This document shows positions 20,199 to 63,286 of a DNA stretch of 64,000 bases, in pieces (position 1 is the first letter of the stretch; every line of letters starts with the position of its first letter). A program made the translations under genes and the position numbers. The DNA is from Eledone cirrhosa. Taxonomy: Eukaryota. The notes below the pieces were generated by a model. It ran no database searches and had not been told where the DNA came from. It was given only the letters and a program-made list of their open reading frames with translations. The stretch lies in NCBI GenBank assembly GCA_964016885.1, contig OZ024745.1, forward strand, positions 73,780,001 to 73,844,000, read 5' to 3'.

Positions 20199-20756
20199 AT
20201 ACAAGTTATATATTAATATATATGATAAACACAAAACGTGTTTGTATTGTAACAGATAAAGTTAGCTAGCATGAAATAAACTAATTAAAGTGAATACAAT
20301 TTGTCTGTCTCGATATAAGTCAATAAAGACAAGCTTATATTGGCAAAAGCCGTGATTCCTGGACAAATTTAAATTTCAAAATCCAAACCCGCTCCGTAGA
20401 TGAATTTGAACTTCGAAACCCAAATATGTTTCGCAACGATGGTACATGAATTGAAAAATAAATTTTTCAACGATGGTACATGAATTGAAAAATTTATTTT
20501 TCAATTCATGTACCATCGTTGCGAAACATATTTGGGTTTCGAAGTTCAAATTCATCTACGGAGCGGGTTTGGATTTTGAAATTTAAATTTGTCCAGGAAT
20601 CACGGCTTTTGCCAATATAAGCTTGTCTTTATTGACTTATATCGAGACAGACAAATTGTATTCACTTTAATTAGTTTATTTCATGCTAGCTAACTTTGTC
20701 TGTTACAATACAAACACGTTTTGTGTTTATCATATATATTAATATATAACTTGTAT
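20199..20756. repeat. Long near-perfect palindrome: 272-bp arms with a 14-bp spacer
   Basis: 20199-20470 is the reverse complement of 20485-20756. One mismatch was seen by eye. Confidence 0.95.
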
Positions 20757-26935: not shown

Positions 26936-28224
26936 CTTGATAATGTGACCTATTGTTTATGAAAATACTCTATACAAAAGACGTTTGTCACTTTTATTGT
27001 TGAAGTTATAGATATTCCTTTCAATAAGTATAGTGGTGATAGACTATTCCAGTATGAAAAATATTGTTGCTGTTGTTGCACAATTGAAGACCGGAGTAGT
27101 GCACCCGGCTCAAAGTTCTTATTTTATTACAGACAGAGCCTTATAAATCGCGAAAATATTGGCTATGTGAAGGCTTGTTATAATTGTTCATCACGGTTTA
27201 CTTACGAGTTACTAATTTTGCTGCTGCTTTAAATTTAGATTTTAGTTGTTCAACGTATCATCTAATTTCTTGTGCAATTGCTATTGCAGCTGATACGACT
27301 GATTTGTAACATTTCGCCGATCATAGTAATGAAAAGCACTTAAGAGTTCTTCTTATGGATTGATGAAGTAGTAGGCTATATTAGTCCCTTTATGTGCCAA
27401 AAGTAGAAACAATTAATGACTGTCTTCTTATATTGCTCTTTGTCACCCATTCAAACTCTACCATCTTAGCTTCAAGGAATATTCACTCATTGAGTGTCAA
27501 ATTTTAACGTAATATATGGTGTTAGTTTCGCAGATGTCTTGTATTACCATCTTTGAAATTTAGATTCATGCTCCATTCCAATACTACAGTTTTATTCTGT
27601 TCTATGCCTACACATTTATTAGCGACCGAACGAACTGTGGGTCGTTTCTTCATTTTAGTTCTAATGAAGATCACCATATTGACGTCAAATTAATGCATTC
27701 CTAGTATATTAATAAGCCAACCACGTGGTACCGAATCAAAAGTTTTCTTGCATTATATCCAGATAGATGACATGTTCTTTTGCTTTTGTTTTGGTATCAT
27801 CCAATCCAGTATCATCTTCTTAACAAAGAGCTGGTCAATTATCTTGTAGGTCTTGGGAGTACACTCTTTCTATGCACAGATAATTGAATATAAATGTACG
27901 TTTATGTTCAATTATCCTATTGTCTGAAATTTGTTTATTAAGATAACAGTTTGTAAGTTTATAATTAAGATATTTTACAAACAAAAGTTATATAATGATG
28001 GAAATATTAAAACAAGAATATAAACAAAGTGAAGTAATAAAATAGGTGGGGCAAAGTAAAGATGGACAGATCTGGCTGTAGAGAAAAGTAAAGGAGATGA
28101 CTATAAATGTGATAAATGAGAAGAAAATGAAGGAAAGAGCAAGGATTATAAAGAAGAGATAATATTTTGGAGTGTTGTTTATAAATTACTGGCATACTTG
28201 GAATCATTATTATCCTAAAAGAAA

Positions 28225-28412
28225 TGGGTATTGGATTGGCAGTATCGGTAGAGGGTCGGATGCTATGCTTTGAAGTACAGAGTTACGCCCCTTTATGATC
28301 TGAGTTCAAATCCCGCCAAGGTTAACTTTGCCTTTCATCCTTACGGGGTCGATAAAATAAAGTACCAGTAATGCACTGGATAATTGCTGGCCTTGTGTCA
28401 AAAGTATAAACA
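28225..28412 (+). mobile_element. Full-length SINE family 1 with a 19-bp target-site duplication
   Basis: Flanks are ATTATTATCCTAAAAGAAA (28206-28224) and ATTATTATCTTAAAAGAAA (28413-28431). A and B boxes, core and tail are all present. Confidence 0.9.
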
Positions 28413-29499
28413 ATTATTATCTTAAAAGAAAGGAGCTATCACAACACATTTTAAAGAGGGTGTTAAACATTTAAATATCTTCAACAACAAAATATTTCTA
28501 GTTTCCGAAGCTGTCTTAAACAAGTGTCAGATCAGATATTGTAACGTTATATAGTTTTATAACCAGCTATTGTTTTTTTGTCAGATTTAGTATAGTTTTC
28601 AAAAATAGCATTCTAAAATGTATTTATTGGTTCTTTAACGGCTATCTAATCTATCCCTATATTGTTATCACGTATTGCTCTAGAGAATTCTTTTCAAAGG
28701 TGTAGTTTTCCATGAAGCATTTCTAAACATTCAGGTGTTTGGAGATGCGTTTGTTCATTGTTCATATTATTTCATCATGTGTTGGCATATATTTTTGTTA
28801 AAATTTATTTGAATGGTTATCTACTGCCATCTGAGTTATTTTACTTGCTTCGATTACGTAAATTATTTATCTTACACTTTAATTTAGCCCTCCGGTTATC
28901 TATTCTATCTTGGTAACATATCTTTTGTAACAATACATTATTCATCTAAACCTGCAGAGTAAATTATTGCGATTATCCAAGCATATTTGGAAAGTGTCTA
29001 ACTGAGTAATGGAATTGGGTATGACGATGTAATTTGTGATCACCCTTTGTATATTGCCGATAGCGTCCAGTAATCTATTTTAGTATTTAAGGGATTGCTT
29101 TCTCCTCTCCCAGCAACAGTAATAACAATAGCAGCAGGAGCTGCAGTAGCAATGAAACATGTCTTTTTAAACGGGAAACAAACTGGCTTAAAAACCCCAA
29201 AAAGGTCGTCCGAAAAATACGAAAAAGTCCCTGAAGCACTTTGAGAACATAACTAAGAGAAAGATAGTGTACCATTACGTGGAAGATAAGGAATGATGAG
29301 TTGAAATGACAACATATTTCTATCTCAAGAATCATATGGAGCGATGTTGGAATTGCCACAGACAATATGGAGCAGTGGAGATTAAATTCCTCTAAGAAGC
29401 CAAAGTACAGACGTGTTCCACTGTTCTTTGCAGGATTTGAGAATTTAGTACATGAGCTGGTGAGTGGCTAATCTCTAGGTATCGAGTGTATTGTGATAA

Positions 29500-29554
29500 T
29501 TAAATTTCTGGCCTTGTGCCTAAATCAGAAACCATCATTATTATTATTATTATT
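29500..29554 (+). mobile_element. SINE-type 3' tail plus (ATT)n at the left edge of the array
   Basis: TTCTGGCCTTGTGCCTAAATCAGAAACCATC followed by (ATT)n. Confidence 0.7.
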
Positions 29555-30357
29555 GTTCTTTGAGTCTCAGTCATTGATGTTATTTAACTGGAAAGTTTGT
29601 TGAAATGAATATCAAGCCGCTACCTACAGCCTCAGATATTCAGGACGTATCGGAGGTTCTTACTGTTCCCAGCAAGCATGCCTTTTGAAGTGTTCCAAAA
29701 AGCGGGGCTGCACTAATCTTCTTTAATCATCCTTGGAAACTCTTTGAGATAGTACCTACTGCGCCTATGACAATCGGGACGACCTAAACATACCTTGTTA
29801 TGTTGATCTTTTACAATGATGTCAGGTCTATTTGCTTTTATGGTCTTGTCAGTATGTAAGTATGTACAGAAAAGTCCCAGTGAATTGTTACTTTTTCTCC
29901 TTCAGTTACAGCCTCAGGGTGATGATTGTACCACTTGTCTTCAGTTTTGATTTGATAATGCCGACATATTACCCAGTGTAGATATTGGCCAACTCTGTCA
30001 TGTCTATATTTGTATTATACTGGTACTAAAACTTTACATCCAGAGACTAAGTGATCTACTGTTTCAACATCAGTATTGCAGAATCGGCACTTTGGGTTTA
30101 TACCGTTTCTCATCACACTGGCCTGGTAATTAGGAGTCAATAAGATTTGATCTTGGGCAGATAAGATGAAGCCTTTACTATCCGCCTTTAGCCCTGAACT
30201 ACGTAGCCACTGATGGGTGTGCTTTTGGTCAACATCAGCTTGTTTGCTACGGGCCACATATTTGCCATGCAGAGGTTTCTGCTCCCAATTTGATGCTAAT
30301 TGTCCTTGCCCTTTTGCTTTTGCCAGTGATTTTATGTGCCTAGCAGAATCAGTTGCA
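29555..30357 (-). mobile_element. 5'-truncated degenerate R4/Dong-type element
   Basis: WEQKPLHGKY..HQWLRSSGLK..GFILSAQDQ..CRFCNTDVETVDHLVSGC and a terminal LQKACLLGT. It is flanked by ATT tracts. Confidence 0.9.
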
Positions 30358-30387
30358 ATTATTATTATTATTATTGTTATTGTTATT

Positions 30388-30513
30388 CCTTGAATCTCAG
30401 TCATTGATGTTGGTTAACTGGAAAGTCCGTTGGATTGAATATCAAGCCACTACCTGCAGCCTCAGATATTCAGGACGTATCGGAGGGTTCTTGCCGTTCC
30501 AAGCAAGCATGCC

Positions 30514-30516
<3 letters not shown>
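30388..30516 (-). mobile_element. ~130-bp extreme 3' fragment of the same R4/Dong-type family
   Basis: KACLLGTARTLRYVLNI* plus a 3'UTR similar to 29557-29686. It is flanked by ATT tracts. Confidence 0.85.
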
Positions 30517-30550
<34 letters not shown>

Positions 30551-30764
30551 GAATGCCATGGTTGACGGAGGCTCGGCTCTGTAAGGTATAGTAATTTTTA
30601 ACCGTTAAAACAATTGTAAATTGTTTAAAACTTGAACCAAATTGTTGATAAAGACACCCTCCTCCTCGTGAGAGGGGTCTTTCTGTCCGTTATTTGGCCC
30701 TTCGGGGTTAAATAACCAGTTATTGGGGTTTTGTACCCAATATTCATTTTAAACAAAAAACAAC

Positions 30765-32861
30765 ATGGCTACGAAAAAGAAATTTCATACGTCACTCCCA
30801 CTCATTCCGTCTTCTTCTTCCTCAATCATCACTACAGCAGAGAGAAGATTGTCTCTCTCCCTCCCTTCTTTAAATGTGTCTCTCTCCCTCCCTTCTCTTT
30901 CGCAAGTGACGAAAGAAAAGAAAAGTCTCGTGCAAAGCGTGCAAGGTTTCTCCACGACGACGACGACAGCGACGAAACAGGTGTGCGGGAAATACGAAAA
31001 CCCAGTTCATTCGTCTGACGTCAGGAATAATAGCAGTAGCAGCCGTAATAACAACAGCAACAGTGACAATGAAAACAACAGTAGCAGCCGCAACAGCATC
31101 ACCAGCAGCATAAACAACAACAGCATTAGCAGCAGCAACACCAACAACAACCACAGCAACAGCGGCGGAGGCAGTAGTCGTAGTACCTGCAGCAACAACA
31201 AAAGTACCAGCAGCTCTGACGACAACAACAACAGCAGAGAAAAACCAATCTCATTTGCAGGTATTGCGAAAAACTTGGAAACAATCCTCATAACAAATGA
31301 GGAATTAGAGGAAGCGAAGAAGATGGTGACAAAGAACGGACACCGAGCAATCTGCAAGGCAGCGAAAAATTTTTTCGAAACCCAAGAGCACTGTACGGTC
31401 ACGTACCGTACAGTAAGTACAAAATCCCGTAGGGTGGAAAGAGCCACAGAGGCCCAAATACAAAAAGCCTTGGGGTCTGTGTGGCAGAGGAAAACGCACA
31501 TCACCCGAGGCAAAAAATACGCCACCGTAGACGTACTTTTTGCCACACCCCAGGAGGCAAAGGCCCAATCAGTAGTGACCCTAAGGAGCGAGGAAATGGT
31601 GTTGGTGCCCTCCTACTGCGGGCAAAAAATTGTGAGGGTCAAACTGACCCACGTCCCCCCCGGAATGACCCCTTCTTGGCTGGCCGCGTCTGTCCTCGTC
31701 GGAATCGAGGACAAAACAACTGTACTGCAAGTACAGAAAAAAGTAAGAGAAGATTGGGTCGGCTCCTCCATTGAGATGCTAATCCAAACCAACCAGGAGT
31801 GCATCGAAGCTATCCCGGATGTGATAGACTTCGATAACGGCACTCAACTGCCCATAAGTGTTGAGGGCAAACGCCCGAAATGCTTTCGCTGTGGATCGAA
31901 GACTCACCTCAGGGCCTTCTGCAACGAGAAGACCCTGAGAAAGGAGAAAACCCCCCTCCTTCCGAATCCGGCTCCACGGCTACCAGCAACAGGACAAGCG
32001 GCAACCAGGAACGATAGGTCCGTGGCACCCATACCCACTCCACGGAAATCAAAGACAGAAGCAGCAGTGGAAATATTAACAACAACAACAGCAATACCAA
32101 ATGCAGCTGCAACAGAGACTCCAGTGCAAACATCACCAACAACAACAAGTGAAAGAGTGGAGCTGGTACCCCTCCCCGACCTTACAGAATCAGACATGGA
32201 GTGTGAGGTGGGAGAGGGATGGCAAAAGGTCGCAAGAAGGCACAAACGCAGAAGCAGCGCATCGTCGCCTTTGAAAAGGGAGGAAAGAAATGAGAAAAGG
32301 GTAAAGTCTACTGCAAAGAGACCCACAGCAGCAACACCACCAACACCATCACCACCCACACCAGCACCACCATCACCACCGGCGACAACCCCACCGCCAA
32401 CAACACCTTCAACACCACCACCACAAGCACCAACATCGCAAACACAACAACAAAACACACACACCCAGCAACAACGACAAGAAAATAGCAGAACCACACC
32501 CCACCCCCAGAAAAACAAATGCACGGCAATAAACACACACAACAAGAAACTAATGACTTACATAATTGAACACACAGACATTTCACAACAGGACTACATA
32601 ATACCAGCACCAATCAAAACGCCAACTAACATAAGACTGCTAAAAATAGCACAGAAACAATACACAAACATTAAAACGAAATTCCCCAACGCAGTTGGTG
32701 ATTTCAGGGACCTAGGAGGAACCATCAATCGAAGAGTATATTCAGACATTCTCTTAGAAGAGCCGACGACCAGCCGAAGGGACGATTCAACGGTCCCTTC
32801 ACCAGACGATCAAGTGAAAAGGGATGTAAAAACCATCCCTCCTCTACCAAAAGTACGGTAA
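30765..32861 (+). CDS. ORF1 nucleic-acid-binding protein (698 aa)
   Basis: Asn/Ser-rich N-terminus, globular centre, CCHC knuckle CFRCGSKTHLRAFC, basic WQKVARRHKRR segment, Pro/Thr-rich linker and a conserved C-terminal block. Confidence 0.9.
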   Translation: MATKKKFHTSLPLIPSSSSSIITTAERRLSLSLPSLNVSLSLPSLSQVTKEKKSLVQSVQGFSTTTTTATKQVCGKYENPVHSSDVRNNSSSSRNNNSNSDNENNSSSRNSITSSINNNSISSSNTNNNHSNSGGGSSRSTCSNNKSTSSSDDNNNSREKPISFAGIAKNLETILITNEELEEAKKMVTKNGHRAICKAAKNFFETQEHCTVTYRTVSTKSRRVERATEAQIQKALGSVWQRKTHITRGKKYATVDVLFATPQEAKAQSVVTLRSEEMVLVPSYCGQKIVRVKLTHVPPGMTPSWLAASVLVGIEDKTTVLQVQKKVREDWVGSSIEMLIQTNQECIEAIPDVIDFDNGTQLPISVEGKRPKCFRCGSKTHLRAFCNEKTLRKEKTPLLPNPAPRLPATGQAATRNDRSVAPIPTPRKSKTEAAVEILTTTTAIPNAAATETPVQTSPTTTSERVELVPLPDLTESDMECEVGEGWQKVARRHKRRSSASSPLKREERNEKRVKSTAKRPTAATPPTPSPPTPAPPSPPATTPPPTTPSTPPPQAPTSQTQQQNTHTQQQRQENSRTTPHPQKNKCTAINTHNKKLMTYIIEHTDISQQDYIIPAPIKTPTNIRLLKIAQKQYTNIKTKFPNAVGDFRDLGGTINRRVYSDILLEEPTTSRRDDSTVPSPDDQVKRDVKTIPPLPKVR

Positions 32862-32896
32862 GTGGTCTTTCCCATCTTTTCCACTCTATTTTAAAC

Positions 32897-35800
32897 ATGA
32901 CCTCACTCAGAATAGGCAGCATAAATGCGCGTGGCTTGGGGTCGTCATGGAAGCAGGGTCACCTGCTCAACGACCTCAGGTCACTAAACATAGATGTAGT
33001 GGCCATCAGCGAGACCAGAATCTCCGAAGCACGGGCCTTCGCACCGATCTTCGGCGGCTACGATGTGTACGCATCTCCCAGCCGTCCTGGATCGGGTGGA
33101 GGAGTTGCTGTGCTTTTTCGGAGAGGTTTGGATCTCGCCATACGGGCCATCTTCCTGGACCCAGAGGGTAAGCTGGTGGTGCTGAACGTGACCAGCGGAG
33201 ACGGGCAAGCTTTCAGGCTAGTGGCCGTCTATGCCCCGACAGGAGCAGGGCGGCCTGATTTCTTCCGGCGTCTGGAGACCTTTCTTGGAACGTCCCGCTC
33301 TTTAGTGTTAGTGGGCGACTGGAATGGGATCTTAGATGCGCGCTGGGACTGTGTGGGATTAGCGGATAGGGGTGGAGGGTGCAAGAGCCTCACCAACCTG
33401 CTCAGGCGTTTTGAACTGTCTGACAGGTACCGATTGGATTTCCCGAATGTGCCAATGTGGACTTGGACAAACCGCATAGGGTCATCCAGATCATATCTAG
33501 ATAGAGTATTTTGTAGGGAAATAGATAGGTCTAGCATAGGCTGTCCACAATTCAAGATAGTCAGCTACACGGACCACAAATTCGTGACCTGTGTGCTTGA
33601 CTTAGATAGGCTTCATAGACGAGGACCCGGCTACTGGAAGCTAAACGCGTCCTTACCAGCGCGCAAGGCCTACAGAGACCGGATTAGCGAACTAGTTAAG
33701 CGGGCGTTGACGGGGGCCATCGTCAACAACAAGTGGTGGTTTGCTCTGAAAAGAGCGATTAGAATAGAATCGATTAGGTTTAGTAAGGCTTTAGCAATAG
33801 AGAAAAATAGAGCAGAGGGAGAACTAGTTACAAAATTAGACGAGGCGCTTAGCAAAGGCATTGCGACCGACGTGCTTGCGGCGAAATTGGCCCTTGACCA
33901 ATTCTTCAATGCAAAGCACGAAGGCTGCGTTGTCAGAGCTAGGGTGCGTGCTCTCAGACACGAGGGGACGAAAGCCGTTCAATGGGCCCGAGTGGCGGAG
34001 GCGCGTCGTGGCAACAAAGCCACGATCCGGTCTTTGGTGGACCACGACGGGCGCATGCTACTCGATCCCGGGCAAATGTGTGAAGCTTTTCAGCGACACT
34101 TCGCTCAGCTGTTCGGGGGCAGCGGGGGGCCGGGTAGAGGGATGGACTTTAGTGTCTACCTCGACGGACTGCCGCGGCTCTCGGCCACTGAGGCGAAGTG
34201 TTGCGAAAAGCCGATAACAGCCGCTGAAGTACGGGAGGCAATGACTGGCTGCACAAGGGGTAAATCGCCTGGTTTGGATGGTCTGCCCTATGAACTTTAC
34301 GTACAGATGCCAGACTTGTTCGGAGGCCTCTTGGCGGACGTCTACTGCAACTGGCAACAGAACGGGAGAATTCCCAGTTCTGTGAGCCGAGGAGCGGTGG
34401 CACTGCTGAGAAAGGATCCGAACAAGGGGGATAACATAGAAAATTTCCGGCCCATAACTCTGCTAAACACAGAGTTTAAGATTTTGGCCAAGGTGCTAGC
34501 AAAGAGGTTGGCGCTTGTCGTTGGTGGTCTGGTGGGAGAGGCGCAGACATGCGCCATTCCCGACAGATCCATCCACGACAACCTCCACCTCATGCGATAC
34601 ATCGTAGAGAGGGTAGCTAGGGAACCTGGCACGGGTGGGTCCTTGATCAATTTAGATCAGTCGAAAGCTTTCGATAGGGTCGACCATCGTTACCTAGCGG
34701 CAGTCCTGAGGGCGGCTGGCTTTGGGCCCGTCTTCAGAGGCTGGATCGCTGCCATGCACAGCGACATCTGCTCTGTGGTGAGAGTGAACGGTCACCTGTC
34801 GGAACCGTTCAACATCATGCGCTCGGTCCGCCAAGGATGTCCCCTCTCGTCCCTCTTGTACGTATTGACTCTCGAGCCATTACTGCACAAACTGGAGACG
34901 TTGAGGGGAGTCCCGCGCGAACTAGGATGCGGAAGATCCGTGTCAGCATATGCGGACGATGTCACCGTAGTGGTGTCGAACGCCAAACACATCGAGGCGA
35001 TCGGCACTACACTAAGAGAATACGAAGCGGTGACAGGAGCAATGATCAACCAGGAAAAGTCAGTGGGCCTGCAGCTCGGCACCTGGAGAGGCAGGTCCAT
35101 GCCGTCCAACAGCGTCGTCGGGCGCTGGACGGACGGACCGGTTAAATTGCTAGGGGTCTGGTTCGGTCCGGACCTCCAGACGGACAAAAACTGGGACGAG
35201 GTGACGAGCAGGGTGGCTTCTCTCACCCAGAAATGGGCGGAGAGGAAGCTATCCCTGAAAGGTCGAGCGGAGGTGGCTAACGCGTACATCGCGTCTGTCA
35301 TCTGCTACCGCCTAACCGTCGTACCTTGTCCTAAGCCTCGCCTGACTGCGCTGGAGCGTTTGCTCTTTCGCTTTTTGTGGAAGGGACGTGCTCCGATGGT
35401 CAGGCGGTCCATCTGTTGTCAACACCCGCTACGTGGAGGGCTGGGGATGCCGTGGCTGATGATGCGCAGGCACGCGCTCAGGCTACGACATCTCCACCTC
35501 TTCCTCGACGGTGATCAGGTGTGGTCGCCGTTTGCTAGACGCGTTTTTCCCCAGCTCGTTTCCTTGACGGAGCTGCAGTCCTGGGTCAAGCGAAGACCGA
35601 GAGGGAGCGCCTGGAGACTGGAATGTCTTCAGGCGCTCACAGCCCTCGACCAATCGGGCAATGTGATCGGTGGAAACTCCACCTCGGCGTTCTATAGAGG
35701 ATTAGTGGAGGGGAAGAGCGACGACGTACTTGGGGAAACTCTAGGCGTCGACGAAAATCAACTAGCCAATCTCTTCGGAAGAACTTTCGGGCCAGGGCCT

Positions 35801-36316
35801 ATGGACAACTTCCAGAAATCTCTGGCCTGGCAGTGCTACCGAGGAGCCTTGCCAGTTCGGGATAAACTCTACAGGCATGGAGGTGCCGTCAGCCGGGCAT
35901 GTCCGAGATGCGCGCAGGGCGACGAAACCGTCCTGCACGCACTCGTCGAGTGTCCGAAAATTGCTGACTTGTGGGTTTATGTCGAACACCTGCTGTCGCG
36001 TTTAGGACGGATCCAGCTATCATCTGAGTCTATCGTGAGGATTGCCCCGCCCTCCTCCTTTAGCCGGGAAGGGCAGGCAGTTTTTATCTGTCTGGTGGCC
36101 ATGGCGAAAGAGATAGTATGGTGGACACGTTTGAAAGGGCTGAAGACGAGCACTTACCTCTTCGGTGATGCTCTGATTGACTTTTTCAAATTTCATTTGA
36201 AAAGGAAAATCAGAGTAGAGAAGGAAGTGCTCTCTTCCCAGCATTTTGTTGAAAGATGGGTGAGAGAAGCAAGAATGGCCCGAGTGAATGGGCCGACTCT
36301 GAGTATATATCTGTAA
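32897..36316 (+). CDS. ORF2: APE endonuclease, reverse transcriptase and C-terminal zinc finger (1139 aa)
   Basis: EN motifs INARGL, SETR, VYAP, GDWN, YLDR, TDH; the GPGYWKLN motif; RT motifs KSPGLDGLP, FRPITLLN, DQSKAFDRVDH, RQGCPLS, YADD; finger CPRCAQGDETVLHALVEC. Confidence 0.97.
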   Translation: MTSLRIGSINARGLGSSWKQGHLLNDLRSLNIDVVAISETRISEARAFAPIFGGYDVYASPSRPGSGGGVAVLFRRGLDLAIRAIFLDPEGKLVVLNVTSGDGQAFRLVAVYAPTGAGRPDFFRRLETFLGTSRSLVLVGDWNGILDARWDCVGLADRGGGCKSLTNLLRRFELSDRYRLDFPNVPMWTWTNRIGSSRSYLDRVFCREIDRSSIGCPQFKIVSYTDHKFVTCVLDLDRLHRRGPGYWKLNASLPARKAYRDRISELVKRALTGAIVNNKWWFALKRAIRIESIRFSKALAIEKNRAEGELVTKLDEALSKGIATDVLAAKLALDQFFNAKHEGCVVRARVRALRHEGTKAVQWARVAEARRGNKATIRSLVDHDGRMLLDPGQMCEAFQRHFAQLFGGSGGPGRGMDFSVYLDGLPRLSATEAKCCEKPITAAEVREAMTGCTRGKSPGLDGLPYELYVQMPDLFGGLLADVYCNWQQNGRIPSSVSRGAVALLRKDPNKGDNIENFRPITLLNTEFKILAKVLAKRLALVVGGLVGEAQTCAIPDRSIHDNLHLMRYIVERVAREPGTGGSLINLDQSKAFDRVDHRYLAAVLRAAGFGPVFRGWIAAMHSDICSVVRVNGHLSEPFNIMRSVRQGCPLSSLLYVLTLEPLLHKLETLRGVPRELGCGRSVSAYADDVTVVVSNAKHIEAIGTTLREYEAVTGAMINQEKSVGLQLGTWRGRSMPSNSVVGRWTDGPVKLLGVWFGPDLQTDKNWDEVTSRVASLTQKWAERKLSLKGRAEVANAYIASVICYRLTVVPCPKPRLTALERLLFRFLWKGRAPMVRRSICCQHPLRGGLGMPWLMMRRHALRLRHLHLFLDGDQVWSPFARRVFPQLVSLTELQSWVKRRPRGSAWRLECLQALTALDQSGNVIGGNSTSAFYRGLVEGKSDDVLGETLGVDENQLANLFGRTFGPGPMDNFQKSLAWQCYRGALPVRDKLYRHGGAVSRACPRCAQGDETVLHALVECPKIADLWVYVEHLLSRLGRIQLSSESIVRIAPPSSFSREGQAVFICLVAMAKEIVWWTRLKGLKTSTYLFGDALIDFFKFHLKRKIRVEKEVLSSQHFVERWVREARMARVNGPTLSIYL

Positions 36317-36578
36317 ACTAAAGGTGGAAAACTGGGAGAGGGCACTTGCCTTGGTGGTCAGGGTCATTGTGGCTTTTTACTGGGCTTTCTCCACAAATGT
36401 CCCTCCGAAGTCTCCCCCCTATTGGGGAATTTTTCATTGTTATTTTCATTGTTATTTTTGTTACATCCTCTGTTTTTGTTTTTTTTTACACGCAGAAATG
36501 CCCATTTGTACCGTCCTGCATTGTCCTGCACTGTCCTTAATGTCTACTTTATGTAAACCCTTGTGGTTAATAAAGAAA

Positions 36579-36580
<2 letters not shown>

Positions 36581-36632
<52 letters not shown>
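36581..36632. repeat. (ATT)n spacer shared as the tail of Tx1 copy 1 (+) and of the Dong-type element (-)
   Basis: Read directly. Equivalent spacers occur at 30516-30550, 39667-39707, 45385-45408, 51291-51317, 57199-57225 and 63252-63286. Confidence 0.95.
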
Positions 36633-36633
<1 letters not shown>

Positions 36634-39600
36634 AGTTGCATTTATCTTGCTTTATGTTCATACGAGTTATCACCAAGTCACAACCAGTGACCTCAAGAGA
36701 CAACAAGGTCCGCCATGTTCAAGAAAGAACATACATATTCACACATGCATCTTTAGTGTTTAGACTTGTGATGTACTTATATTGACAGAATCTTCCTTAG
36801 TATATGGGCAGTTCCCATTAGTACTATCTTTTGTATTTCTCCTATACGCGGGTTTCCTGTGATTTGCGATATGTAATCATTAGACCCCTTAGGTATCATT
36901 CCCAGAGCGCCTACAACCACTGGTATTGTTTTAGTTCTCAATTTCCACATTTTTCCAATTTCTATCTCCAGGTCCTTATACTTGCTCAATTTTTCAAATG
37001 TTTTTATAGATACATTCTTGTCTATTGGAACAGACATATCAATTAGCAGGCATACCCTCTTTTGAAAGTCTTTCAATATTATATCAGGTCTGTTTGCATC
37101 TATTTTTCTGTCTGTTTGGATGCTAAAGTTCCACAAGATTGAGATGTGATCTTTTTCAAGTATGGGAGGTGGTTGATGCTTCCGCCAATTCTTTTGATGG
37201 GGCAGGTCAAAATGCTTACACATTATCCAATGTATGTATTGTGCAGCTCTGTCATGCCTGTTTAGGTATTCGGTTGGAGCTATAGGACTGCACATTGAAA
37301 TTATATGGTCAATGGTCTCTGGTTGTTTTTTGCATACACGGCATAATGGGCTGCACCCATTTTTTATTATGTTGGCTTGGTAATTTTTTGTTGGCAGACA
37401 CTGATCTTGTGCCGATATAATCAGTCCTTCAGTCTCCGATTTCAGTCCAGAGGATGCCAACCACTGATGGGTTAAAGTTTTGTCAACATCAGGATTGTTA
37501 GCTCGCTCTGGGTATTTTCCATACAGAGGCTTTTCTTGCCATTTCTTAGCCAGTTTCTGTAGCAGTTCTTTCTTTGCAGTTACTTTTACCTGCTTTGCTT
37601 TTTCTGTGTTTTCCATTTCAGCAGTAACTGGGACTTCTGAAATTTGTAGTCCATTACTGTATCTTTGTGCATCTTTTGTAATGGAATATGATCTTTTGAT
37701 GCTTTGGTGTTTCAAAAGGAGTTTGATCATCCAATCATGTGATTCCCTTAGATATGTAGATAATCCAATTGTTGCAGTTTTCAACGCAATGTCTAACTGG
37801 ATTAACCCACGTCCTCCTTCTTTCCTAGGGAGATATATTCTATCTATATCTGCCTTAGGGTGATGCATTCTGTGCATGGTTAAGAATTTTCAAATTTTTG
37901 TATCGAGCCTACGGATCTCTGTGCTTGACCAGTTGATGACATTGTAACTGTAGGTTACTACTGGTATGGCAAGCGTGTTTATGGCATCGATCCTATTCCT
38001 TGCATTCAATTCCGTTCTTAAGATTGCTCTTACTCTGCGGTAACATTCCTTCCTTATCCTTTCCCTCATTGTCGAGTGCTTGATTCCGTCTCCTTCACAA
38101 ACACCTAGATATTTGTAAGTTTTTTCTTGATCAAGTTCTCTTATCACGTTCCCCCGATCAAGATTAATGTCTGAACTCTTCAGCAGCTTTCCTCTGGTGA
38201 ACGTTGCTTTGGCGCATTTATCTAGTCCAAACTCCATTTTAATGTCATCACTGAACTGCTTCACAGTGGATAATAGCCCTTGCAATTGTTCATCATTTTT
38301 TGCAAATAGTTTCAGGTCATCCATGTAGAACAGGTGATTAATGGTTTTGTCATAGACTTTATATCCATGTTTTGTTTCATTGAACATTTTACTTAATGGT
38401 ATAAGTGCGATGCAGAATAAAAGCGGTGATAAAGAGTCACCCTGAAAAATTCCACAATTAATATTAACTTCTCCAGCTTCCAGTGATTTTGTTTCACTAT
38501 TCAAAAGGAGTGTCGTTTTCCATGTCTTCATACTGAATGACAAAAACCTCCTGACAACGGGGGATATTTTGAAAATCTCTAAACATTTTTCAATCCAACT
38601 GTGTGGCAAACTATCGAATGCTTTTTTATAATCTATCCAAGCAATCGATAGATTTTTGTGTCTATTATGACAATCTTCCAGTATCATTTTGTTAACCCGA
38701 AGCTGATCCTTACAGCCATATGAGCCTCGTTTACACCCTTTCTGCTCAATGGGAAATAGGTCATTTGTTATCAGGTGGTCATATGTGTATTCAGTTAGGA
38801 CTGATGTTAAAATTTTATACATTGTGGTGAAGCAAGTTATCGGTCTGTAATTTTTGGGATTGTTTGTCTCATCATTCTTCGGAAGCAGGAATGTAATGCC
38901 GTTAACTAGCCATGAAGGTATCTTTTCTGGCTCCTTAACTATTTCATTGTAAAGTTGAGCTAACAGTTCATGAGACTCTGTGAAGGCATTTATCCAAAAG
39001 TTTTGTATTTTGTCTTTTCCTGGAGATTTCCATTTGCTGGTTTTTCTTAGAGCCAAGCGCAACTGTTCAACTGTTATATTTTCCCATGTTTGCTCCTCAA
39101 GGTGAGCTGTATCTTTCATTTGTCTGTCTATCCATGGGGCATGTATGTTATGAACTTTTTCTTCGGCCCAGATCTTTTCCCAGAATTCTTGCACTTCCTC
39201 CTTGGGTGGTATTGATTTAGCAGTTATTGTTGACTTACCAATTTTTCTATAGAAGTTTCTTTGGTTGTTTTTGAACATATTATTGTCCTTATAGAATCTA
39301 GATCGTTTTTCAAAGCGCCTTATACGAGCAGCTTTGGCCGACACTTTTTGCTTGATTATTTCTATCAGCATGTCTATGTCACATGTTGATTTTATACTGT
39401 ACTCTTTTTTCAATTTTCTAAGTTTAGTTTGTTTAACATGTTCACCTACTTTATAGTTTGTTAAAATTTCTATGTCAGATCGGAGAAGGTTTATTTGGCG
39501 ATTGATGTTCTCTTGCCATGTAGATTTCTTGTGGGAATTCCTTTGTTTTTTCATCTTCACTCCACATAAGTGAGTGGTGACTTTAGCCGATGCATAATAG

Positions 39601-39666
39601 AGATGATTTAAATCAGTAATGTTTAGTTTGTTTGTGATGATAATGGTTTTGAGAATTATGTTAGTC
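36633..39666 (-). mobile_element. R4/Dong-clade RLE non-LTR retrotransposon, 5'-truncated
   Basis: A single RT-CCHC-RLE reading frame stays open into the upstream (AAT)n. A ~144-nt 3'UTR is followed by (TAA)n on the coding strand. Confidence 0.92.
36777..39666 (-). pseudogene. RT plus restriction-like endonuclease ORF with one in-frame stop (37890-37892)
   Basis: Motifs NYRPITC, IDYKKAFDS, GIFQGDSLSPLLF, FYMDDLK, CRVCKKQPETIDHIISMC, RHD and NRPDIILKD..IDMSVP..KLSKYKDL. ORFs 37890-39560 and 36777-37877 are in the same frame (DTKI*KFLTMH). Confidence 0.92.
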
Positions 39667-39707
<41 letters not shown>

Positions 39708-39916
39708 GGTGACCTACGTAGTAAATCGTATCATCGTGAGCTCCGCAAAGGTTTGTTATTTCCGTTTGTTAAAAACTGCCATTTATGGAAAAAGTTTATT
39801 GTTAACTATATATAAGCGCACATACACAGTTTTCCGAAAAGGACACCCAAAAAGATTGGGGCCTTGTGCCCAAAATTTAAACTTTTATGATTATCAAAAA
39901 ATTTCTTTGAAAAAAA

Positions 39917-41812
39917 ATGGCTAATTCACCTCTGCACCAAGCAGCTGAGAGCCTTCCTCACAAATTAACACCTCACACCGACACCACCATTGTACTATAC
40001 CAACACTAAAAAAAATATAAGCAGTAGCAATATTTTAAATTTGTCTCAGGCAGACATTCATTTCCCGCCATTACCAATGACTGCAGGTGTTAAAGCCGCC
40101 ACCACCACCATCACCACCGCGACAACCACCACCCCCACCACAACCGCGACAACAGAAACAAAAGAAAAAAATAAATGAACTCGTGATGTCGAAATGTTTA
40201 CAACCAAAATGGACTCATCCAGACCGAACACCAACTGACGTCACCACCATCACAACTGAAACTAAAATTAATAATAACAAAAATAACGATAACAACAACA
40301 GCAACAATGACATTAAAAAAAACACCCTGAGTTTTGCCAGAGTAGCAAAACAGTGCGAAGCATTTTCGGTAACTCAGGAGGAATTAGAAATTGCTAAAAA
40401 AATGGTAAAGAAAGATGGGTACAGGGTCAGCCCCCCCCCATAATAAAATGGAGCATCGGCGCCTATGAACCGTGTCGTATCGAACAATTAATTTAAAATT
40501 TCGCCGAGTGGAACGGGCATCCGAGTCCCAAATCCAAAAAGCTTTGGGACATGTGTGGGCAAGAAAAACCCACATCAGACGTGGGCAAAAGTATGGAACC
40601 GTGGACGTGTTCTTTGAAACACCAGAATAGGCTAGAGAACACTCCATGGCACCATTAAGAAGTGACGACTTATCACTCGTCCCAAGCTATTGTGGCCAGA
40701 GACTCGTAAAGATCAGGGTGACCCACGTTCCACCGGCCATCGAAATTCCCTGGCTAATAGCGGCCGTCCTCGCCGGCATTGAAGCCAAAAGAAAAGCAGG
40801 AGAACTGGTCCGGATCTGGGATGGAGCTCCTGATCCAAGCGGACCACAAAAGCATTGAGGAGATCCCAGAGGTAATAGACCTCACTGACGGTAGCCACCT
40901 CACCGTAATTGTCGAGGGCAGAAGGCCTAGGTGTGTCGTTTGTGGTGAAGGAACCCACCTAAGGGCTTTCTGCCCTCAGGCTAAAAGTTTGAGGCCACCT
41001 CTCCTACCCACCGCAGTGACTCAACCATCAACACCGCAAGTAGCAGAGATGGCAGCAACAACTGTAGCAGCAACAACAGAAGCAACTATAACAGCAACAA
41101 CCCCAGCAACAGTAGCAAAACCAACACCACCACCACCAACAAAACCAACACCACCACCACCCAATACTTCAGAACTATCACCAGCGGCTACACCATCCAC
41201 CACGCCACAACCAAAACTAACGCCTGTGGAGGATTTTCCACTCCCCGCCCTATCACAACTGGAGACAGATTGTGACGACGAGAAGTGGGAAACGGTATCA
41301 GGAAAAAAAAAAGAAATCAAAAAAGAAAAAATTCTCTTCCTTCCCCCTCCAAAAACAAAATACAGAGGGAAACAAATAAATTAAGAAACAAAAAAGTTAG
41401 GACAGATATGCCACCATCCACAACAGCATCATCAACCCCATCACCCCAAACACCAACACCATCACCATCATTAACCCCAACACCACCATCACCTACACTA
41501 CAAAAGACACCAAAATGCGAAACAGAAACAAACCCACAACAAACGCAAACAAAACAAAACAACCAAAACGATACACACTACACAGCATTAAATTTGAACA
41601 ACAACCAATTATTACACTACATCCAACACAACACCAGCATCACAGAAAAAGACTACACAACAACCTAAAAATTCACACCACCTCCACACATACAAATCAC
41701 TCGCATCACACAGAAAACGTACATGACACTAAAACAAAAATTCCCCAAAGACATCGGAGACTTCCGACAGGCACTCTCCAGGAGGATTTATAAGGACATC
41801 CTTCCCGAGGAG
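39917..41812 (+). pseudogene. Disrupted B-type ORF1
   Basis: AAAATGGCT start; fragments LSFARVAK..EELEIAKKMVKK, LVPSYCGQRLVKIRVTHVPP, EGRRPRCVVCGEGTHLRAFC and KQKFPKDIGDFR; several stops and frameshifts. Confidence 0.85.
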
Positions 41813-44800
41813 GCCATCAGCGAAACCAGAATCTCGAAGCACGGGCCTTCGTACCGATCTTCGGCGGCTACGATGTGTACGCATCTCTCAGCCGTCCGGG
41901 ATCGGGGGGAGGAGTTGCTGTGCTTTTTCGGAGAGGTTTGGATCTTTCCATACGGGCCATCTTCCTGGACCCAGAAGGTAAGTTGGTGGTGCTGGACGTG
42001 ACCAGCGGAGAAGGGCAAGCTTTCAGGTTAGTGGCCGTCTATGCCCCGACAGGAGCAGGGCGGCCTGATTTCTTCCGGCGTCTGGAGACCTTTCTTGGAA
42101 CGTCCCGCTCTTTAGTGTTAGTGGGCGACTGGAACGGGATCTTAGATGCACGCTGGGATGGTGTGGGATTAGTGGATAGAGAAGGCGGGTGCAAGAGTCT
42201 CACCAACCTGCTCAGGCGTTTTGAACTGTCTGACAGGTACCGAATGGATTTCCCGAATGTACCAATGTGGACTTGGACAAATCGCATAGGGTCATCCAGA
42301 TCATATCTAGATAGAGTATTTTGTAGAGAAATAGATGGGTCTAGAATAGGCTGTCCACAATTCAAGATAGTCAGCTACACGGACCACAAATTCGTGATCT
42401 GTGTGCTTGACTTAGATAGGCTTCATAGACGAGGACCCGGCTACTGGAAGCTAAACGCGTCCTTACCTGCGCGCAAGGCCTACAGGGACCGGATTAGCGA
42501 ACTAGTTAAGCGGGCGTTGACGGGGCCATCGTCAACAACAAGTGGTGGTTTGCTCTGAAAAGAGCAATTAGAATAGAGTCCATTAGGTTTAGTAAGTCGT
42601 TAGCAATAGAGAAAAATAGAGCAGAGGGAGAATTAGTTAGAAAATTAACACGAGGCGCTTAGCAAAGGCATCGCGACCGACGTACTTGCGGCGAAATTGG
42701 CCCTTGACCAATTCTTCAATGCAAAGCACGAAGGCTGCGTTGTCAGAGCTAGGGTGCGTGCTCTCAGACACGAGGGGACGAATGCTGTTCAATGGGCCCA
42801 AGTGGTGGAGGCGCGTCGTGGCAATAAAGCCACGATCCGGTCTTTGGTGGACCACGACGGGCGCATGCTACTTGATCCCGGACAAATGTGTGACGCTTTC
42901 CAGCGACACTTCGCTCAACTGTTCAGGGGCGGTGGCGGGCCGGGTAGAGGGATAGACTTTAGTGTCTACCTCGACGGACTGCCGCGGCTTTCGGCCACTG
43001 AGGCGGAGTGTTGCGAAAAGCCGATAACAACCGCTGAAGTACGGGAGGCAATGACTGGCTGCACAAGGGGTAAATCGCCTGGTTTGGATGGTCTGCCCTA
43101 TGAACTTTACGTACAAATGCCATACTTGTTCGGAGGCCTCTTGGCGGACGTCTACTGCAACTGGCAACAGAACGGGAGAATTCCCAGCTCTGTGAGCCGA
43201 GGAGCGGTGGCGCTGCTGAGAAAGGATCCGAACAAGGGTGATAACATAGATAATTTTAGGCCCATAATTCTGCTAAACAGAGTTCAAGATGTTGGCCAAG
43301 GTGCTAGCAAAGAGGTTGGCGCTTGTCATTGGTGGTCTGGTGGGAGAGGCACAGACATGCGCCATTCCCGACAGATCCATCCACGACAACCTCCACCTCA
43401 TGCGATACATCGTAGAGAGGGTAGCTAGGGAACCTGGCACGGGTGGGTCCTTGATCAATTTAGATCAGTCGAAAGCTTTCGATAGGGTCGACCATCGTTA
43501 CCTAGCGGCAGTCCTGAGGGCGGCTGGCTTTGGGCCCGTCTTCAGAGGCTGGATCGCTGCCATGCACAGCGACATCTGCTCGGTGGTGAGAGTGAACGGT
43601 CACCTTTCGGAACCGTTCAACATCATGCGATCAGTCCGCCAAGGATGTCCCTCTCGTCCCTCTTGTACGTATTGACTCTCGAGCCATTACTGCACAAACT
43701 GGAGACGTTGAGGGGGGTCCCGCGCGAACTAGGATGCGGAAGATCCGTGTCAGCATATGCGGACGATGTCACCGTAGTGGTGTCGAACGCCAAACACATC
43801 GAGGTGATCGGCACTACACTAAGAGAATACAAAGCTGTGACAGGAGCAATGATCAACCAGGAAAAGTCAGTGGGCCTGCAGCTCGGCACCTGGAGAGGCA
43901 GGTCCATGCCGTCCAACAGCGTCGTCGGGCGCTGGACGGACGGACCGGTTAAATTGCTAAGGGTCTGGTTCGGTCCGGACCTCCAGACGGACAAAAACTG
44001 GGACGAGGTGACGAGCAGGGTGGCTTCTCTCACCCAGAAATGGGCCGAGAGGAAGCTATCCCTGAAAGGTCGAGTGGAGGTGGCTAACGCGTACATTGCG
44101 TCCGTCATCTGCTACCGCCTGACCGTCGTACCTTGTCCTAAGCCCCGCCTGACTGCGCTGGAGCGTTTGCTCTTTCGCTTTTTGTGGAAGGGACGCGCTC
44201 CGATGGTCAGGCGGTCCATCTGCTGTCAACACCCGCTACGTGGAGGGCTGGGTATGTCGTGGCTGATGATGCGCAGACACGCGCTCAGGCTACGACATCT
44301 CCACCTCTTCCTCGACGGTGATCAGGTGTGGTCGCCGTTTGCTAGACACGTCTTTCCACAGCTCGTCTCCTTGACGGAGCTGCAGTCCTGGGTCAAGCGA
44401 AGACCGAGTGGGAGCGCTTGTAGACTGGAATGTCTTCAGGCGCTCACAGCCCTCGACCAATCGGGCAATGTGATCGGTGGAAACTCCACCTTGGCGTTCT
44501 ATAGAGGATTAGTGGAGGGGAAGAGCGATGACGTACTTGGAGAAACTCTAGGCATCGACGAAAATCAACTAGCCCAATCTCTTCGGATGAACTTTCGGGC
44601 CGGGGCCTATGGACAACTTCCAGAAATCCCTGGCCTGGCAGTGCTACCGAGGAGCTTTGCCGTTTCGGGATAAACTCTACAAGCTTGGAGGTGACGTCAG
44701 CCGGGCATGTCCGAGATGCGCGCAGGGCGACCAAACCGTCCTTCACGCACTCGTCCAGTGTCGGAGCATTGCTGACTTGTGGGTTTATGTCGAACACCTG

Positions 44801-45132
44801 CTGTCACGTGTAGGACGGATCCAGCTATCAGCTGAGTCCATCGTGAGGATTGCCCCGCCCTCTTTCTTTAACCGGGAAGGGAAGTCAGTTTTTATCTGTC
44901 TGGTGGCCATGGCGAAAGAGATAGTATGGTGGACACGTTTGAAAGGGCTGAAGATGAACACTTACCTCTTCGGTGATGCCCTGATTAACTTTTTCAAATT
45001 TCATTTGAAAAGGAAAATCAGGGTAGAGAGGGATGTGCTCTCTTCCCAGCATTTTGTTGAAAGATGGGTGAGAGATGGGTGAGAAGCAAGTATGGCCTGA
45101 GTGAATGGGCCTACTCTGAGTATGTGTCTGTA
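41813..45132 (+). pseudogene. Disrupted ORF2 lacking its first ~35 codons
   Basis: Begins at AISETRIS. Collinear fragments 41875-42558, 42697-43428, 43289-43675, 43645-44673 and 44609-45082 are separated by frameshifts. Confidence 0.92.
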
Positions 45133-45612
45133 AATTAAAGGTGGAAAACTGGGAGAGGGCACTTGACCTGGTGGTCAGGGTCACTGTGGCCTTTTAATGG
45201 GCTTTTTCCACAAATGTCCCTCGGAAGTGTTCCCCCTATTGGGGAAATTTTCATTGTTATTTTTTGTTATATCATTTTTTGGGGTTTTTTTACACGCAGA
45301 AATGCCCGTTTGTACCGTCCTGTATTGTCCTGTACTTTCCTTAATGTCTACTTTATGTAAACCCTTGTGGTTAATAAAGAAAGCATTATTATTATTATTA
45401 TTATTATTGGTCTAAGCGGACGTATTTTGCTCGCTCCCAGTAAGTAGCTTTATCTGCCTGTTAAAATTATTTGTTGTTAAATATTTCTTGTTGTGTAAGG
45501 AATATAATCACTTTGACTTTGCCCTGTGAAGGGGACAGTATAATATTTGGGCCTTTTGCCCCAAATATTTGAATTATTTTTACATGTTAAAACATTTACG
45601 GAGAGAAAAAAC

Positions 45613-47574
45613 ATGGCTGAGCCACGCCCCCCAGCGATATGTCTGCTGTCGTGCGACAACGACGTGGAAGTTGAGAGGAGCGCTACAGCGAAATTAACAC
45701 AAATTGATAACACAAACACCACCACAAACAAGGTAAACAAAGACACCAATGATACCAATGAGAACTCTAATTTTGAAAAAAATGACAGTAACAGCGACAA
45801 CGAAAATACAGATAACAAAAAAAAAAATAACAAATACAACAACAATATCAACACCACTAACATGAAAACAAATAGCGACAACACCAACAGCAACAATACC
45901 AACTGCACCGAGAACAACGGTGGCAACAAAGACAACAATGATAAGAGCGACAGTGCTAACAACAACACCAACAAGAACAACGACAACGACCACAACATCC
46001 CCAACGAAAACAAGAACACATTCGCTGCGGCAGCAGCAAAAAAGAGGCCATGCTTCAACATGGACATCTCAAACAAAGATGGAAAGTTGGCCCAGGCATG
46101 GAAGCTCATCAAGCAAGAGCAAACCTGGGCCAACTTAACTGTCCCGGTAGAAGCTATTGAGGCAGTGGAGTGCAGAACGGTGCATTATAGATGCATCTCA
46201 GCACAAACCAAAAGGGCAGCTTTAATCCAACAAGAAGATGTCGAAGTCGCGCTGAGGTGCATCAGAGAAAACACCGAATACATAGAGAGGGGCAGACAGT
46301 ACGGCACCATTTCGGTGTTGTTCAAGTCAGAATCCCTCGCTATGAAACACGCTATGACTCCTTGCAAAACCAGCAAGGTCATAATTTACTCCTCCCACAT
46401 GGGAAAAAGAACGGCCCGTCTCCGCATTCCCAGAATCCCACCAGGACTTGACATGTGGTGGCTTCTGTGATGTGTGATTGTGGAGGGGGCGGATACAGTC
46501 CCTATAGAAGTGACCAGAACGGCCAGAGAGGATTGGTCCGGGGTTGACCTGGAGATCCTTCTCCAGATCAGGCCCGAGAATATGAAGACAATCCCGGACC
46601 ACATCCGCCTTCAGAATGGGACGGTCATTCACATTATGACCGAAGGCAAAAGGCCGCAGTGTTTTGTTTGTGGGGAAAAAACCCATTTGCGAGCCTTCTG
46701 CCCTCAACTGCTGAAAGAGGCAAGGGGTAGAAAGGCTCCACTGCTGCCGACGTCGAGGCGAGGACCACAACCAACACCAGCACCGGCAAAACCACCAACA
46801 ACAACACCAATAGAAAGACCACCACCAACATTGACCACCGAGGGGGGAAACGAGGAAAGCTGTCAAATTCCCCCTCCCTCCCCAAATACACACACCAATA
46901 AAACCATAAACATACATACATACATACTTACAGACACAGACCCCTCATCTACCAGTAGTGAAGATGAGGGAAAACCAAAATACAAAAAAGGCAACACAAA
47001 AAGAAAAAAAAACTCAACAAAGCACAAAATCACGCACAATAAAAAACGCAGACACCACCCACGCAAACATCTCTCCAATAACACCAACATCAACACCATC
47101 ACCAGAATGCCCCAAACGCAAACAACCTAAACAGACGCAAGAACAAATATACACACAAACATCTGAAACCACAGACACCGCACTCACAACAAACACAGAT
47201 ACAACCGAAACAACACCACCAAAACCATCACCACCACAGCCACGCAAACAAATAAAATCACACCAACAAAACATACAAAACTTCGTACTCGTTAGGAGGG
47301 CCAACAAGGAACTGATGGTCCTTGTAGCATGAAGTGAAAATATACAAAAAGAGGCGGAAATTTTAAATCAAGCACATTTCGCGTGCCGGAAGATTTGGTT
47401 CTGGTGCGAATGTCGCTCGACATATTCAAAGAAATACGAGACAGCTTTCCTCGGGACGTGGGAACCCCGAACGTAAAACCCACTTCAAGACATTTAAAGG
47501 GGTTCCCAAAAGAAACCCCACTAACTATGGAGGTCGAACAACCCGACCTTCACAAGAGCCCGGAAGGTAAGTAA
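45613..47574 (+). pseudogene. Disrupted C-type ORF1
   Basis: MAEPRPP start, Asn-rich segment, NTFAAAAAK, EGKRPQCFVCGEKTHLRAFC, IRDSFPRDVG. There is a stop at 46468-46470 and further breaks. Confidence 0.85.
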
Positions 47575-47605
47575 ACCTTCCTCTCTCTCTGTTTAACCTG
47601 CCAAC

Positions 47606-53639: not shown

Positions 53640-53674
53640 GTGGTCTTTCCCATCTTTTCCACTCTATTTTAAAC

Positions 53675-59533: not shown

Positions 59534-59568
59534 GTGGTCTTTCCCATCTTTTCCACTCTATTTTAAAC

Positions 59569-63249: not shown

Positions 63250-63286
<37 letters not shown>

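Follow-up and report, generated by a model that had tools for sequence, protein, structure and literature searches.

Tx1-like and R4/Dong-like LINEs lie in opposite orientations on shared ATT microsatellite tracts in a 64-kb window of the Eledone cirrhosa genome

We analysed a 64-kb stretch of the Eledone cirrhosa genome (assembly GCA_964016885.1, contig OZ024745.1, positions 73,780,001 to 73,844,000; hereafter the window, with coordinates counted from its first base). It holds two clusters in which long interspersed nuclear elements (LINEs) of two kinds are set in ATT microsatellite tracts. Cluster 2 (29537-63645, ~34 kb) comprises nine LINE copies with ATT tracts between them: six Tx1-like copies with an apurinic/apyrimidinic-type endonuclease (APE), all on the plus strand, and three R4/Dong-like copies with a restriction-like endonuclease (RLE), all on the minus strand. 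From left to right it consists of a tail resembling those of SINEs (short interspersed nuclear elements) or RTE elements, Dong a (minus), Dong a' (minus), Tx1A (plus), Dong b (minus), Tx1B, Tx1C, Tx1A2 and Tx1A3 (all plus), and a Tx1 stub holding a SINE (plus), each followed by an ATT tract. These ten tracts amount to ~100 units in total. Cluster 1 (3150-4569), 25 kb from cluster 2, has the same pattern with other sequence types: a SINE (plus), an ATT/GTT tract, Dong c (minus), an ATT tract, a Tx1D fragment (plus) and another ATT/GTT tract. The features are listed below (ORF, open reading frame; RT, reverse transcriptase; TSD, target-site duplication; UTR, untranslated region; identities are between nucleotide sequences).

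3044-3154, plus strand: 5'-truncated SINE sitting in a degenerate run of ATT and marking the left edge of cluster 1; 17-bp TSD with one mismatch, starting with ATT; matches the SINE copies at 11.5k, 28.2k and 63.3k
3150-3266, unstranded: degenerate (ATT)n and then (TTG)n tract, the 3' flank of Dong c; (CAA)n on the Dong c coding strand
3267-3802, minus strand: R4/Dong-like 3' fragment of type c (Dong c), 5'-truncated and frameshifted; found by tblastn with the RLE region; 78% identity to type a
3803-3827, unstranded: head-to-head ATT tract, bordered by the 5' ends of an R4 and a Tx1 piece
3828-4501, plus strand: Tx1-like 3' fragment of type D (Tx1D), followed by an ATT/GTT tract (4502-4569); 80% identity to Tx1A; common Tx1 3' end with AATAAA
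27543-27869, minus strand: degraded old internal R4-like RT fragment, no ATT tract at either end; E 6e-13 to one relative
29505-29554, plus strand: 3' tail motif of SINE/RTE-like kind, then the first ATT tract (29537-29554); marks the left edge of cluster 2
29555-30357, minus strand: R4/Dong-like 3' fragment of type a (Dong a), 803 bp, 5'-truncated
30388-30515, minus strand: second type-a R4/Dong-like 3' stub (Dong a'), 128 bp, 90% identical to Dong a; flanked by the ATT tracts 30358-30387 and 30516-30550
30551-36580, plus strand: Tx1-like LINE of type A (Tx1A), full-length, both frames open (ORF1 30765-32861, ORF2 32897-36316)
36581-36632, unstranded: tail-to-tail ATT tract, 17.3 units, common to Tx1A and Dong b
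36633-39666, minus strand: R4/Dong-like LINE of type b (Dong b), 3034 bp, 5'-truncated, with RT (YMDD), CCHC, RHD and PD..D..K motifs
39667-39707, unstranded: head-to-head ATT tract, 13.7 units
39708-45384, plus strand: Tx1-like LINE of type B (Tx1B), full-length, frameshifted, with its own 5' UTR and ORF1; ORF2 92-98% identical to type A
45409-51290, plus strand: Tx1-like LINE of type C (Tx1C), full-length, interrupted; ORF2 73-82% identical to type A; ATT tracts at 45385-45408 and 51291-51317
51318-57198, plus strand: second type-A copy (A2), with a 157-bp deletion in ORF2; ATT tract at 57199-57225
57226-63251, plus strand: third type-A copy (A3), both frames open, 99.3% identical to the first; ATT tract at 63252-63284
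63285-63543, plus strand: Tx1-like 3' stub of type E, 64 bp, with a SINE (~63294-63477; 18-bp TSD, one mismatch) at its 5' junction, then an ATT/degenerate tract to ~63645; 3' end aligns with the other Tx1 ends

All seven Tx1-like pieces lie on the plus strand and all five R4-like pieces on the minus strand. Searches by tblastn with 120 Tx1 and 120 R4 relatives detected no Tx1-type piece on the minus strand and no R4-type piece on the plus strand, cross-hits between RT domains aside. A preliminary description had placed the pattern at 29555..39707; it is real there, but the array runs on to 63645. That description held that every Tx1-type element lies on the plus strand with (ATT)n, which agrees with the (ATT)n end of all seven pieces. 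It also held that the R4/Dong pieces lie on the minus strand with (TAA)n. The strand is right for the four pieces it named, but the piece it placed at 3490 (Dong c) has (CAA)n at its 3' side and an additional fragment (27543-27869) has no tract. The probability that both groups are uniform and opposite by chance is 0.001 when copies are counted (7+4), 0.008 for sequence types (5+3) and 0.5 for two lineages. Given the first two values, each lineage is strand-polar. Two polar lineages face opposite ways with probability 0.5, so that the opposite facing shows no interplay; it probably follows from a separate strand preference in each lineage and not from a partnership. The TAA polarity is common to the Dong element of Bombyx and so would predate the pairing, and the Dong polarity was therefore probably inherited and not shaped by a Tx1 partner.

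Only 5' junctions were counted as evidence for targeting, because a 3' tract can be a self-made tail. In the two clusters, 11 of 11 such junctions (seven Tx1, four Dong) adjoin an ATT tract, while outside the clusters (ATT)3+ runs of either strand contain or adjoin 59 of 28,471 bases (0.2%). The 5' junction of the type-E stub is taken from the TSD of the SINE sitting in it, and four of the seven Tx1 junctions adjoin the 3' tract of an earlier Tx1, which makes them weaker evidence. The best evidence that both groups target the ATT repeat is provided by the three head-to-head tracts between Dong and Tx1 5' ends (3803-3827, 30516-30550 and 39667-39707, with 8.3, 11.7 and 13.7 units, respectively). 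Both neighbours of these tracts are 5' ends and there is no tail, so the tracts can only be target; they match the tail-side tracts in length (8-11 units). A Tx1 element has been considered target-specific when >20% of its flanks fall in one sequence type (PMC4494074), and within the window seven of seven Tx1 5' junctions are on the repeat.

The junction phases are regular. The five full-length Tx1 copies all begin with G directly after (ATT)n and end with C directly before (ATT)n, and this phase is common to three Tx1 types with unrelated 5' UTRs. Tracts between the tail of one Tx1 and the head of the next are exact multiples of three (24, 27, 27 and 33 bp); lengths of 3n+2 are seen in both young head-to-head tracts and 3n+1 in the tail-to-tail one, as two fixed phases would give. 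Read on its own strand, Dong b is flanked directly by (TAA)n at both ends. TAA repeats are found at the 5' junction of four of the five Dong-like pieces and at the 3' side of three, the remaining 3' sides having (CAA)n in one case and no repeat in the other; Dong c has (TAA)n at its 5' side and, at its 3' side, ~26 (CAA)n units followed by degenerate TAA. The element starts after TAA at three of the four Dong 5' junctions and after AAT at one. In a primer for the 5' junction of Bombyx Dong, seven TAA units immediately precede the element (PMC3774820), in agreement with those three junctions in both strand and phase. The older junction tracts (3187-3266, 4527-4550 and 30376-30387) are partly changed to GTT; tracts between young copies are pure ATT.

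The Tx1A ORF2 encodes APE (PF03372, E 2e-14), RT (PF00078) and zf-RVT (PF13966) Pfam domains. The best PDB matches of its N terminus are L1 endonucleases, and the APE motifs SIN, SET, AVYAP, GDWN, YLD and TDH are present. A CX2CX4HX4C knuckle is found in ORF1 of types A, B and C, and YADD together with CX2CX8HX4C in ORF2 of Tx1A and A3, the two type-A copies in which both frames are open and all APE, RT and zinc motifs are kept. The three type-A copies are 98-99% alike. Tx1A ORF2 scores 330 bits to the Xenopus Tx1 ORF2 and 184 to the human L1 ORF2p, and among named relatives the Tx1-like ORF2 is best matched by a protein of Argonauta hians (69% identity over 59% of the query). In a quick RT tree (48 rows, no L1 row), Tx1A, Tx1C, one relative and the Argonauta protein form one clade (support 100), whose sister group is a set of 12 unnamed proteins and which is separate from the Xenopus Tx1 clade; this octopod clade and the Xenopus clade are two of five branches at one fork without resolution (support 93). 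AATAAA lies within ten bases before the tract at all seven Tx1 3' ends, and the five full-length copies have no poly(A) in the genome.

Tx1B and Tx1A are 92-98% identical in ORF2 and the 3' UTR and only ~56-64% alike in the 5' UTR and ORF1. A contig from run X5, which carries another organism label, links the B-type ORF1 end to the A-type ORF2 start, so the form with a swapped ORF1 exists outside this locus. A short TTGGG...CCCAA stem occurs in three otherwise unrelated Tx1 5' UTRs (~30722-30740, 39855-39875 and 45548-45566), where it precedes the start of ORF1 by 25-45 bases. Scanning metagenomes with the Tx1 alignment returned 55 distant loci, with no ATT/TAA run of at least five units among the repeats listed (at most eight per locus), and these loci are too distant to count either way; none matched the Dong C-terminal region. 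Scans of viral sequences with the Tx1 and R4/Dong alignments gave no matches, a scan of prokaryote genomes gave one 518-bp contig that ends before the end of the element, and the Tx1 tail pattern in viral contigs gave three loci, none with element proteins.

Dong b carries the motifs YMDD, CX2CX8HX4C, RHD, RPD, LID and KLSKY, with CCHC, RHD and PD..D..K conserved over 27 aligned rows. Its frame, read from 39665, is interrupted by a single in-frame stop at codon 592. A model of its C-terminal region (mean predicted local distance difference test score, pLDDT, 88.8) gave seven matches at E<=0.001 in a fold search, all of them R2 proteins (template modelling score, TM, 0.63-0.71). A phmmer search of PDB with the RLE region alone gave no match; a profile search and the fold search did. 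The modelled endonuclease of Dong b is thus of the RLE type, and the Tx1 and Dong endonucleases have unrelated folds, since Tx1 matches L1 endonuclease structures and Dong b matches R2 proteins. No named Dong, R4, NeSL or HERO protein is among the matches listed. A placement in R4 rather than in another RLE clade would follow from the TAA target and from YMDD and RHD, which we take to be R4-type motifs.

The four tract-flanked Dong copies are all 5'-truncated. The 74 Rfam matches obtained up to E 5 included no ribozyme, all Dong copies lacking the 5' end. Similarly, no Myb family is among the 25 listed Pfam families of the 27 aligned Dong relatives, and the window copies lack the N terminus, where a Myb/SANT-like domain of the R4/Dong clade has been detected by profile-profile search (PMC7998251). 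Folding of five element ends gave no unusual structure (z from -1.5 to 0.5). The fifth R4-like piece, the minus-strand fragment without a tract, brings tract contact to four of five. It belongs to a small arrangement at 27393-27869, in which a SINE-like tail (plus) is followed within ~120 bp by this degraded RT fragment (minus), a cluster-like relative orientation with no tract left.

Reads and contigs of four runs were mapped to 28500-41750; the two raw-read runs contributed only three and nine mapped reads. A contig of run X1 covers the unique flank at 28500-29525 with one differing letter and a depth of 11.6. The summed depth over the Tx1A and Dong bins is ~1e5 to 9e5, which indicates high repetition and is not a copy number. 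Along Dong b it climbs from 152,000 near the 5' end to 429,000 near the 3' end, the profile expected of 5'-truncated copies. At least half of the words in the Tx1A-Dong b stretch occur in each of 11 runs under eight organism labels, and contigs of run X5 are ~99% identical to Tx1A ORF1 and Dong b, with the unique flank not covered.

We consider it probable (roughly 0.7) that the Tx1-like and Dong-like lineages each independently target the same ATT microsatellite, each with its own fixed priming strand. In target-primed reverse transcription, the priming strand would be antisense to the element, hence (AAT)n for Tx1 and (TTA)n for Dong. Accordingly, the Tx1 APE would nick the (AAT)n strand first and the Dong RLE the (TTA)n strand; if the phase of the junctions mirrors the cut, the Tx1 nick would lie at a T/A step. 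The preliminary description had unrelated endonucleases nicking opposite strands. One microsatellite used by an APE and an RLE with opposite polarity agrees with this, but both lineages must cut both strands and what would differ is the priming strand.

RNA is cleaved some 10-30 bases after an AATAAA-type signal. With AATAAA just before the tract and no genomic poly(A) tail, the Tx1 RNA probably ends in AUU units, cleavage putatively falling inside the tract and leaving a few of them. These units may pair with the nicked (AAT)n strand, which would fix the Tx1 polarity. Each insertion would leave repeat on both sides and so create more local targets, into which later copies of any ATT user could pile. 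The suggestion that the two lineages supply targets for each other is plausible, as ~100 units in ten tracts stand where there was probably one tract. It is not specific to the pair: whichever element inserts, a tract is divided, and the motif also serves a SINE family.

Several points weigh against this reading. Its evidence comes from two clusters in one window. One of four Dong 5' junctions is off-phase, one Dong 3' side is (CAA)n and the fifth R4-like piece has no tract. The junction phase is ambiguous if the true element end includes repeat letters, and the phase agreement of the three Tx1 types is only a 1-in-9 coincidence. The three type-A copies, being 98-99% alike, may come from tandem duplication and not from independent insertions. 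The AUU-priming step is putative, and simple growth of the target without a local preference may be too weak for nine insertions in one tract.

The similarity of the type-A copies, together with the four Tx1 5' junctions that stand on a previous Tx1's 3' tract, would also be expected if Tx1 were not ATT-specific, made its own (ATT)n tail and came to lie beside its own copies by insertion or tandem duplication, with only Dong targeting the repeat. An RTE element of octopus ends in a microsatellite as well (PMC9115989). We find this unlikely, because three Tx1 5' ends (types A, B and D) stand on tracts bounded on the opposite side by a Dong 5' end, where no tail is possible, and because tandem duplication does not place members of different families side by side, as B, C and A are. 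The lineages could instead depend on or regulate each other through targets and antisense RNA, with opposite polarity under selection. Both lineages occur in two of two clusters, with one tail-to-tail and three head-to-head Tx1/Dong junctions, and the minus strand of the 6-kb Tx1A lacks AATAAA, so that a transcript from the Dong side would meet no canonical signal. However, about one or two AATAAA are expected by chance in 6 kb, which makes this absence weak evidence, and the right half of the array has mostly Tx1-Tx1 junctions. The preliminary description had expected read-through from either element to be antisense to the other. The only tail-to-tail junction between Tx1 and Dong is the tract at 36581-36632, which, as that description stated, does border both Tx1A and the 3-kb Dong copy on their 3' sides, and the geometry for read-through exists there alone. 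A plus-strand AATAAA stands before this tract at 36569 and the next plus-strand signal is at 38416, inside Dong b; the AATAAA at all seven Tx1 ends and the missing 5' end of all four tract-flanked Dong copies, none of which could produce its own transcript judging from the window, argue against read-through. With the chance of 0.5 for opposite polarity at the lineage level and the presumably older polarity of Dong, such a coupling seems unlikely.

Much less probable still is an assembly artefact in which repeats were joined through shared ATT runs. Every unit is joined by tracts of 24-52 bp, and no contig laid on 28500-41750 spans a junction, repeats having been skipped in the mapping. The copies nevertheless carry private substitutions, deletions and stops, the junction phases are regular, an 18-bp TSD flanks the SINE of the last stub, and old degraded copies obey the same rule. 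Octopod genomes might hold a self-expanding ATT niche, in which ATT runs are both seeded and used by RTE-type SINEs and then receive, with opposite polarity and by way of unrelated endonucleases, Dong and a new Tx1 radiation specific for (ATT)n. Every insertion would multiply the target, and the resulting convergent and divergent arrays of tens of kilobases would give dual-strand RNA and could be small-RNA sources for mutual silencing. We put this forward as a speculation that is unlikely to hold as a whole.

A tRNA-like SINE family is present at 3044-3154, 11540-11730, 28226-28412 and 63294-63477. Its TSDs are 17-19 bp long and start with ATT in three of the four copies examined, which suggests that the family is a third ATT user, priming at ATT motifs in the Tx1 polarity. 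ARAGORN detected no tRNA gene in this family. Two interpretations involving these SINEs were rejected: that 63285-63543 is a SINE with a Tx1-derived tail, as the TSD shows that the SINE inserted into a Tx1 stub, and that a SINE tail seeded both clusters, as the TSD of the SINE in cluster 1 shows that the ATT run came first there. Elsewhere in the window, the 558 bp at 20199-20756 form a near-perfect palindrome: they match their reverse complement at 97.8%, and the middle holds a 34-bp tandem unit. This may be a miniature inverted-repeat transposable element. An inverted pair of ~60 bp (~11480-11545, minus, and 12365-12430, plus) starts with a short ATT run, and one of its arms is a SINE 3' flank. 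Diverged direct duplications are found at 321-643/642-954 (72%) and 15188-15385/15603-15821 (86%).

The Dong side of this arrangement is already known behaviour. Dong inserts into (TAA)n so that its coding strand carries TAA (PMC3812793, PMC7998251, PMC3774820), and the preliminary description's statement that Bombyx Dong targets TAA repeats agrees with this. Dong of Bombyx mori, DongAg, DongBg and Dong1/2 of Darwinula combine an RT with a C-terminal CCHC and a restriction-like endonuclease, as do the Dong-like copies here, which show no difference in kind except that 5' truncation has left them without the 5' ribozyme and the Myb-like domain. In Bombyx, a 5' ribozyme like that of hepatitis delta virus releases Dong from an upstream co-transcript (PMC3774820). 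Dong is listed among APE-type elements in PMC3812793 and given a restriction-like endonuclease in PMC7998251; the latter agrees with the R2-type fold matches of Dong b. In Octopus vulgaris, Dong-R4 is abundant, and both Dong-R4 (1129 insertions) and L1-Tx1 (421) count among the LINEs with recent activity; the annotation of that genome reports unexplained hotspots of transposable elements (PMC13282606), for which shared targeting would be a testable cause. Low Dong activity was seen with MELT in O. bimaculoides (PMC9115989). Short reads make it difficult to call insertions in tracts that have other repeats as neighbours, and this may be relevant to that result.

The new part is likely the Tx1 side, an APE lineage on (ATT)n, which would add this repeat to the known Tx1 targets. 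Microsatellite-specific Tx1 LINEs include Kibi on (TC)n, Koshi on (TTC)n and crocodilian Tx1 on (TTCC)n/(TTTC)n (PMC4494074). They share with the Tx1 described here two ORFs, a zinc-knuckle ORF1, an APE-RT-CCHC ORF2, insertion in a microsatellite and fixed polarity (PMC4494074). The window elements differ from them in their A/T-only (ATT)n target, which is already used by an RLE element, and in their mollusc host, and from Xenopus Tx1 in that their RT falls in its own clade with Argonauta and unnamed relatives. Literature searches, which covered neither Repbase nor Dfam nor the target listing of PMC4494074, which may hold an ATT/TAA case, listed no report of an ATT-specific Tx1 or of a target shared by Tx1 and Dong. 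The arrangement would also provide an example in which an APE and an RLE converge on one 3-bp repeat, a clean pair for asking whether polarity is set by the endonuclease or by RNA-target pairing.

TRAS and SART belong to the R1 clade. Elements of this clade have an APE (PMC4640811). TRAS1 and SART1 of Bombyx mori are, as here, two LINE families inserted in opposite directions in one simple repeat (PMC7265360), and the preliminary description's choice of them as an analogue is borne out. The TRAS1 endonuclease nicks at a T/A step, and SART1 is reported to start at an internal repeat-like RNA that may anneal to the target (PMC7265360). In TRAS/SART, both partners have an APE and the target is telomeric, whereas here one APE and one RLE element share interstitial (ATT)n. 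The Tx1/Dong pair thus works like TRAS/SART across the APE/RLE divide, without being a member of that system.

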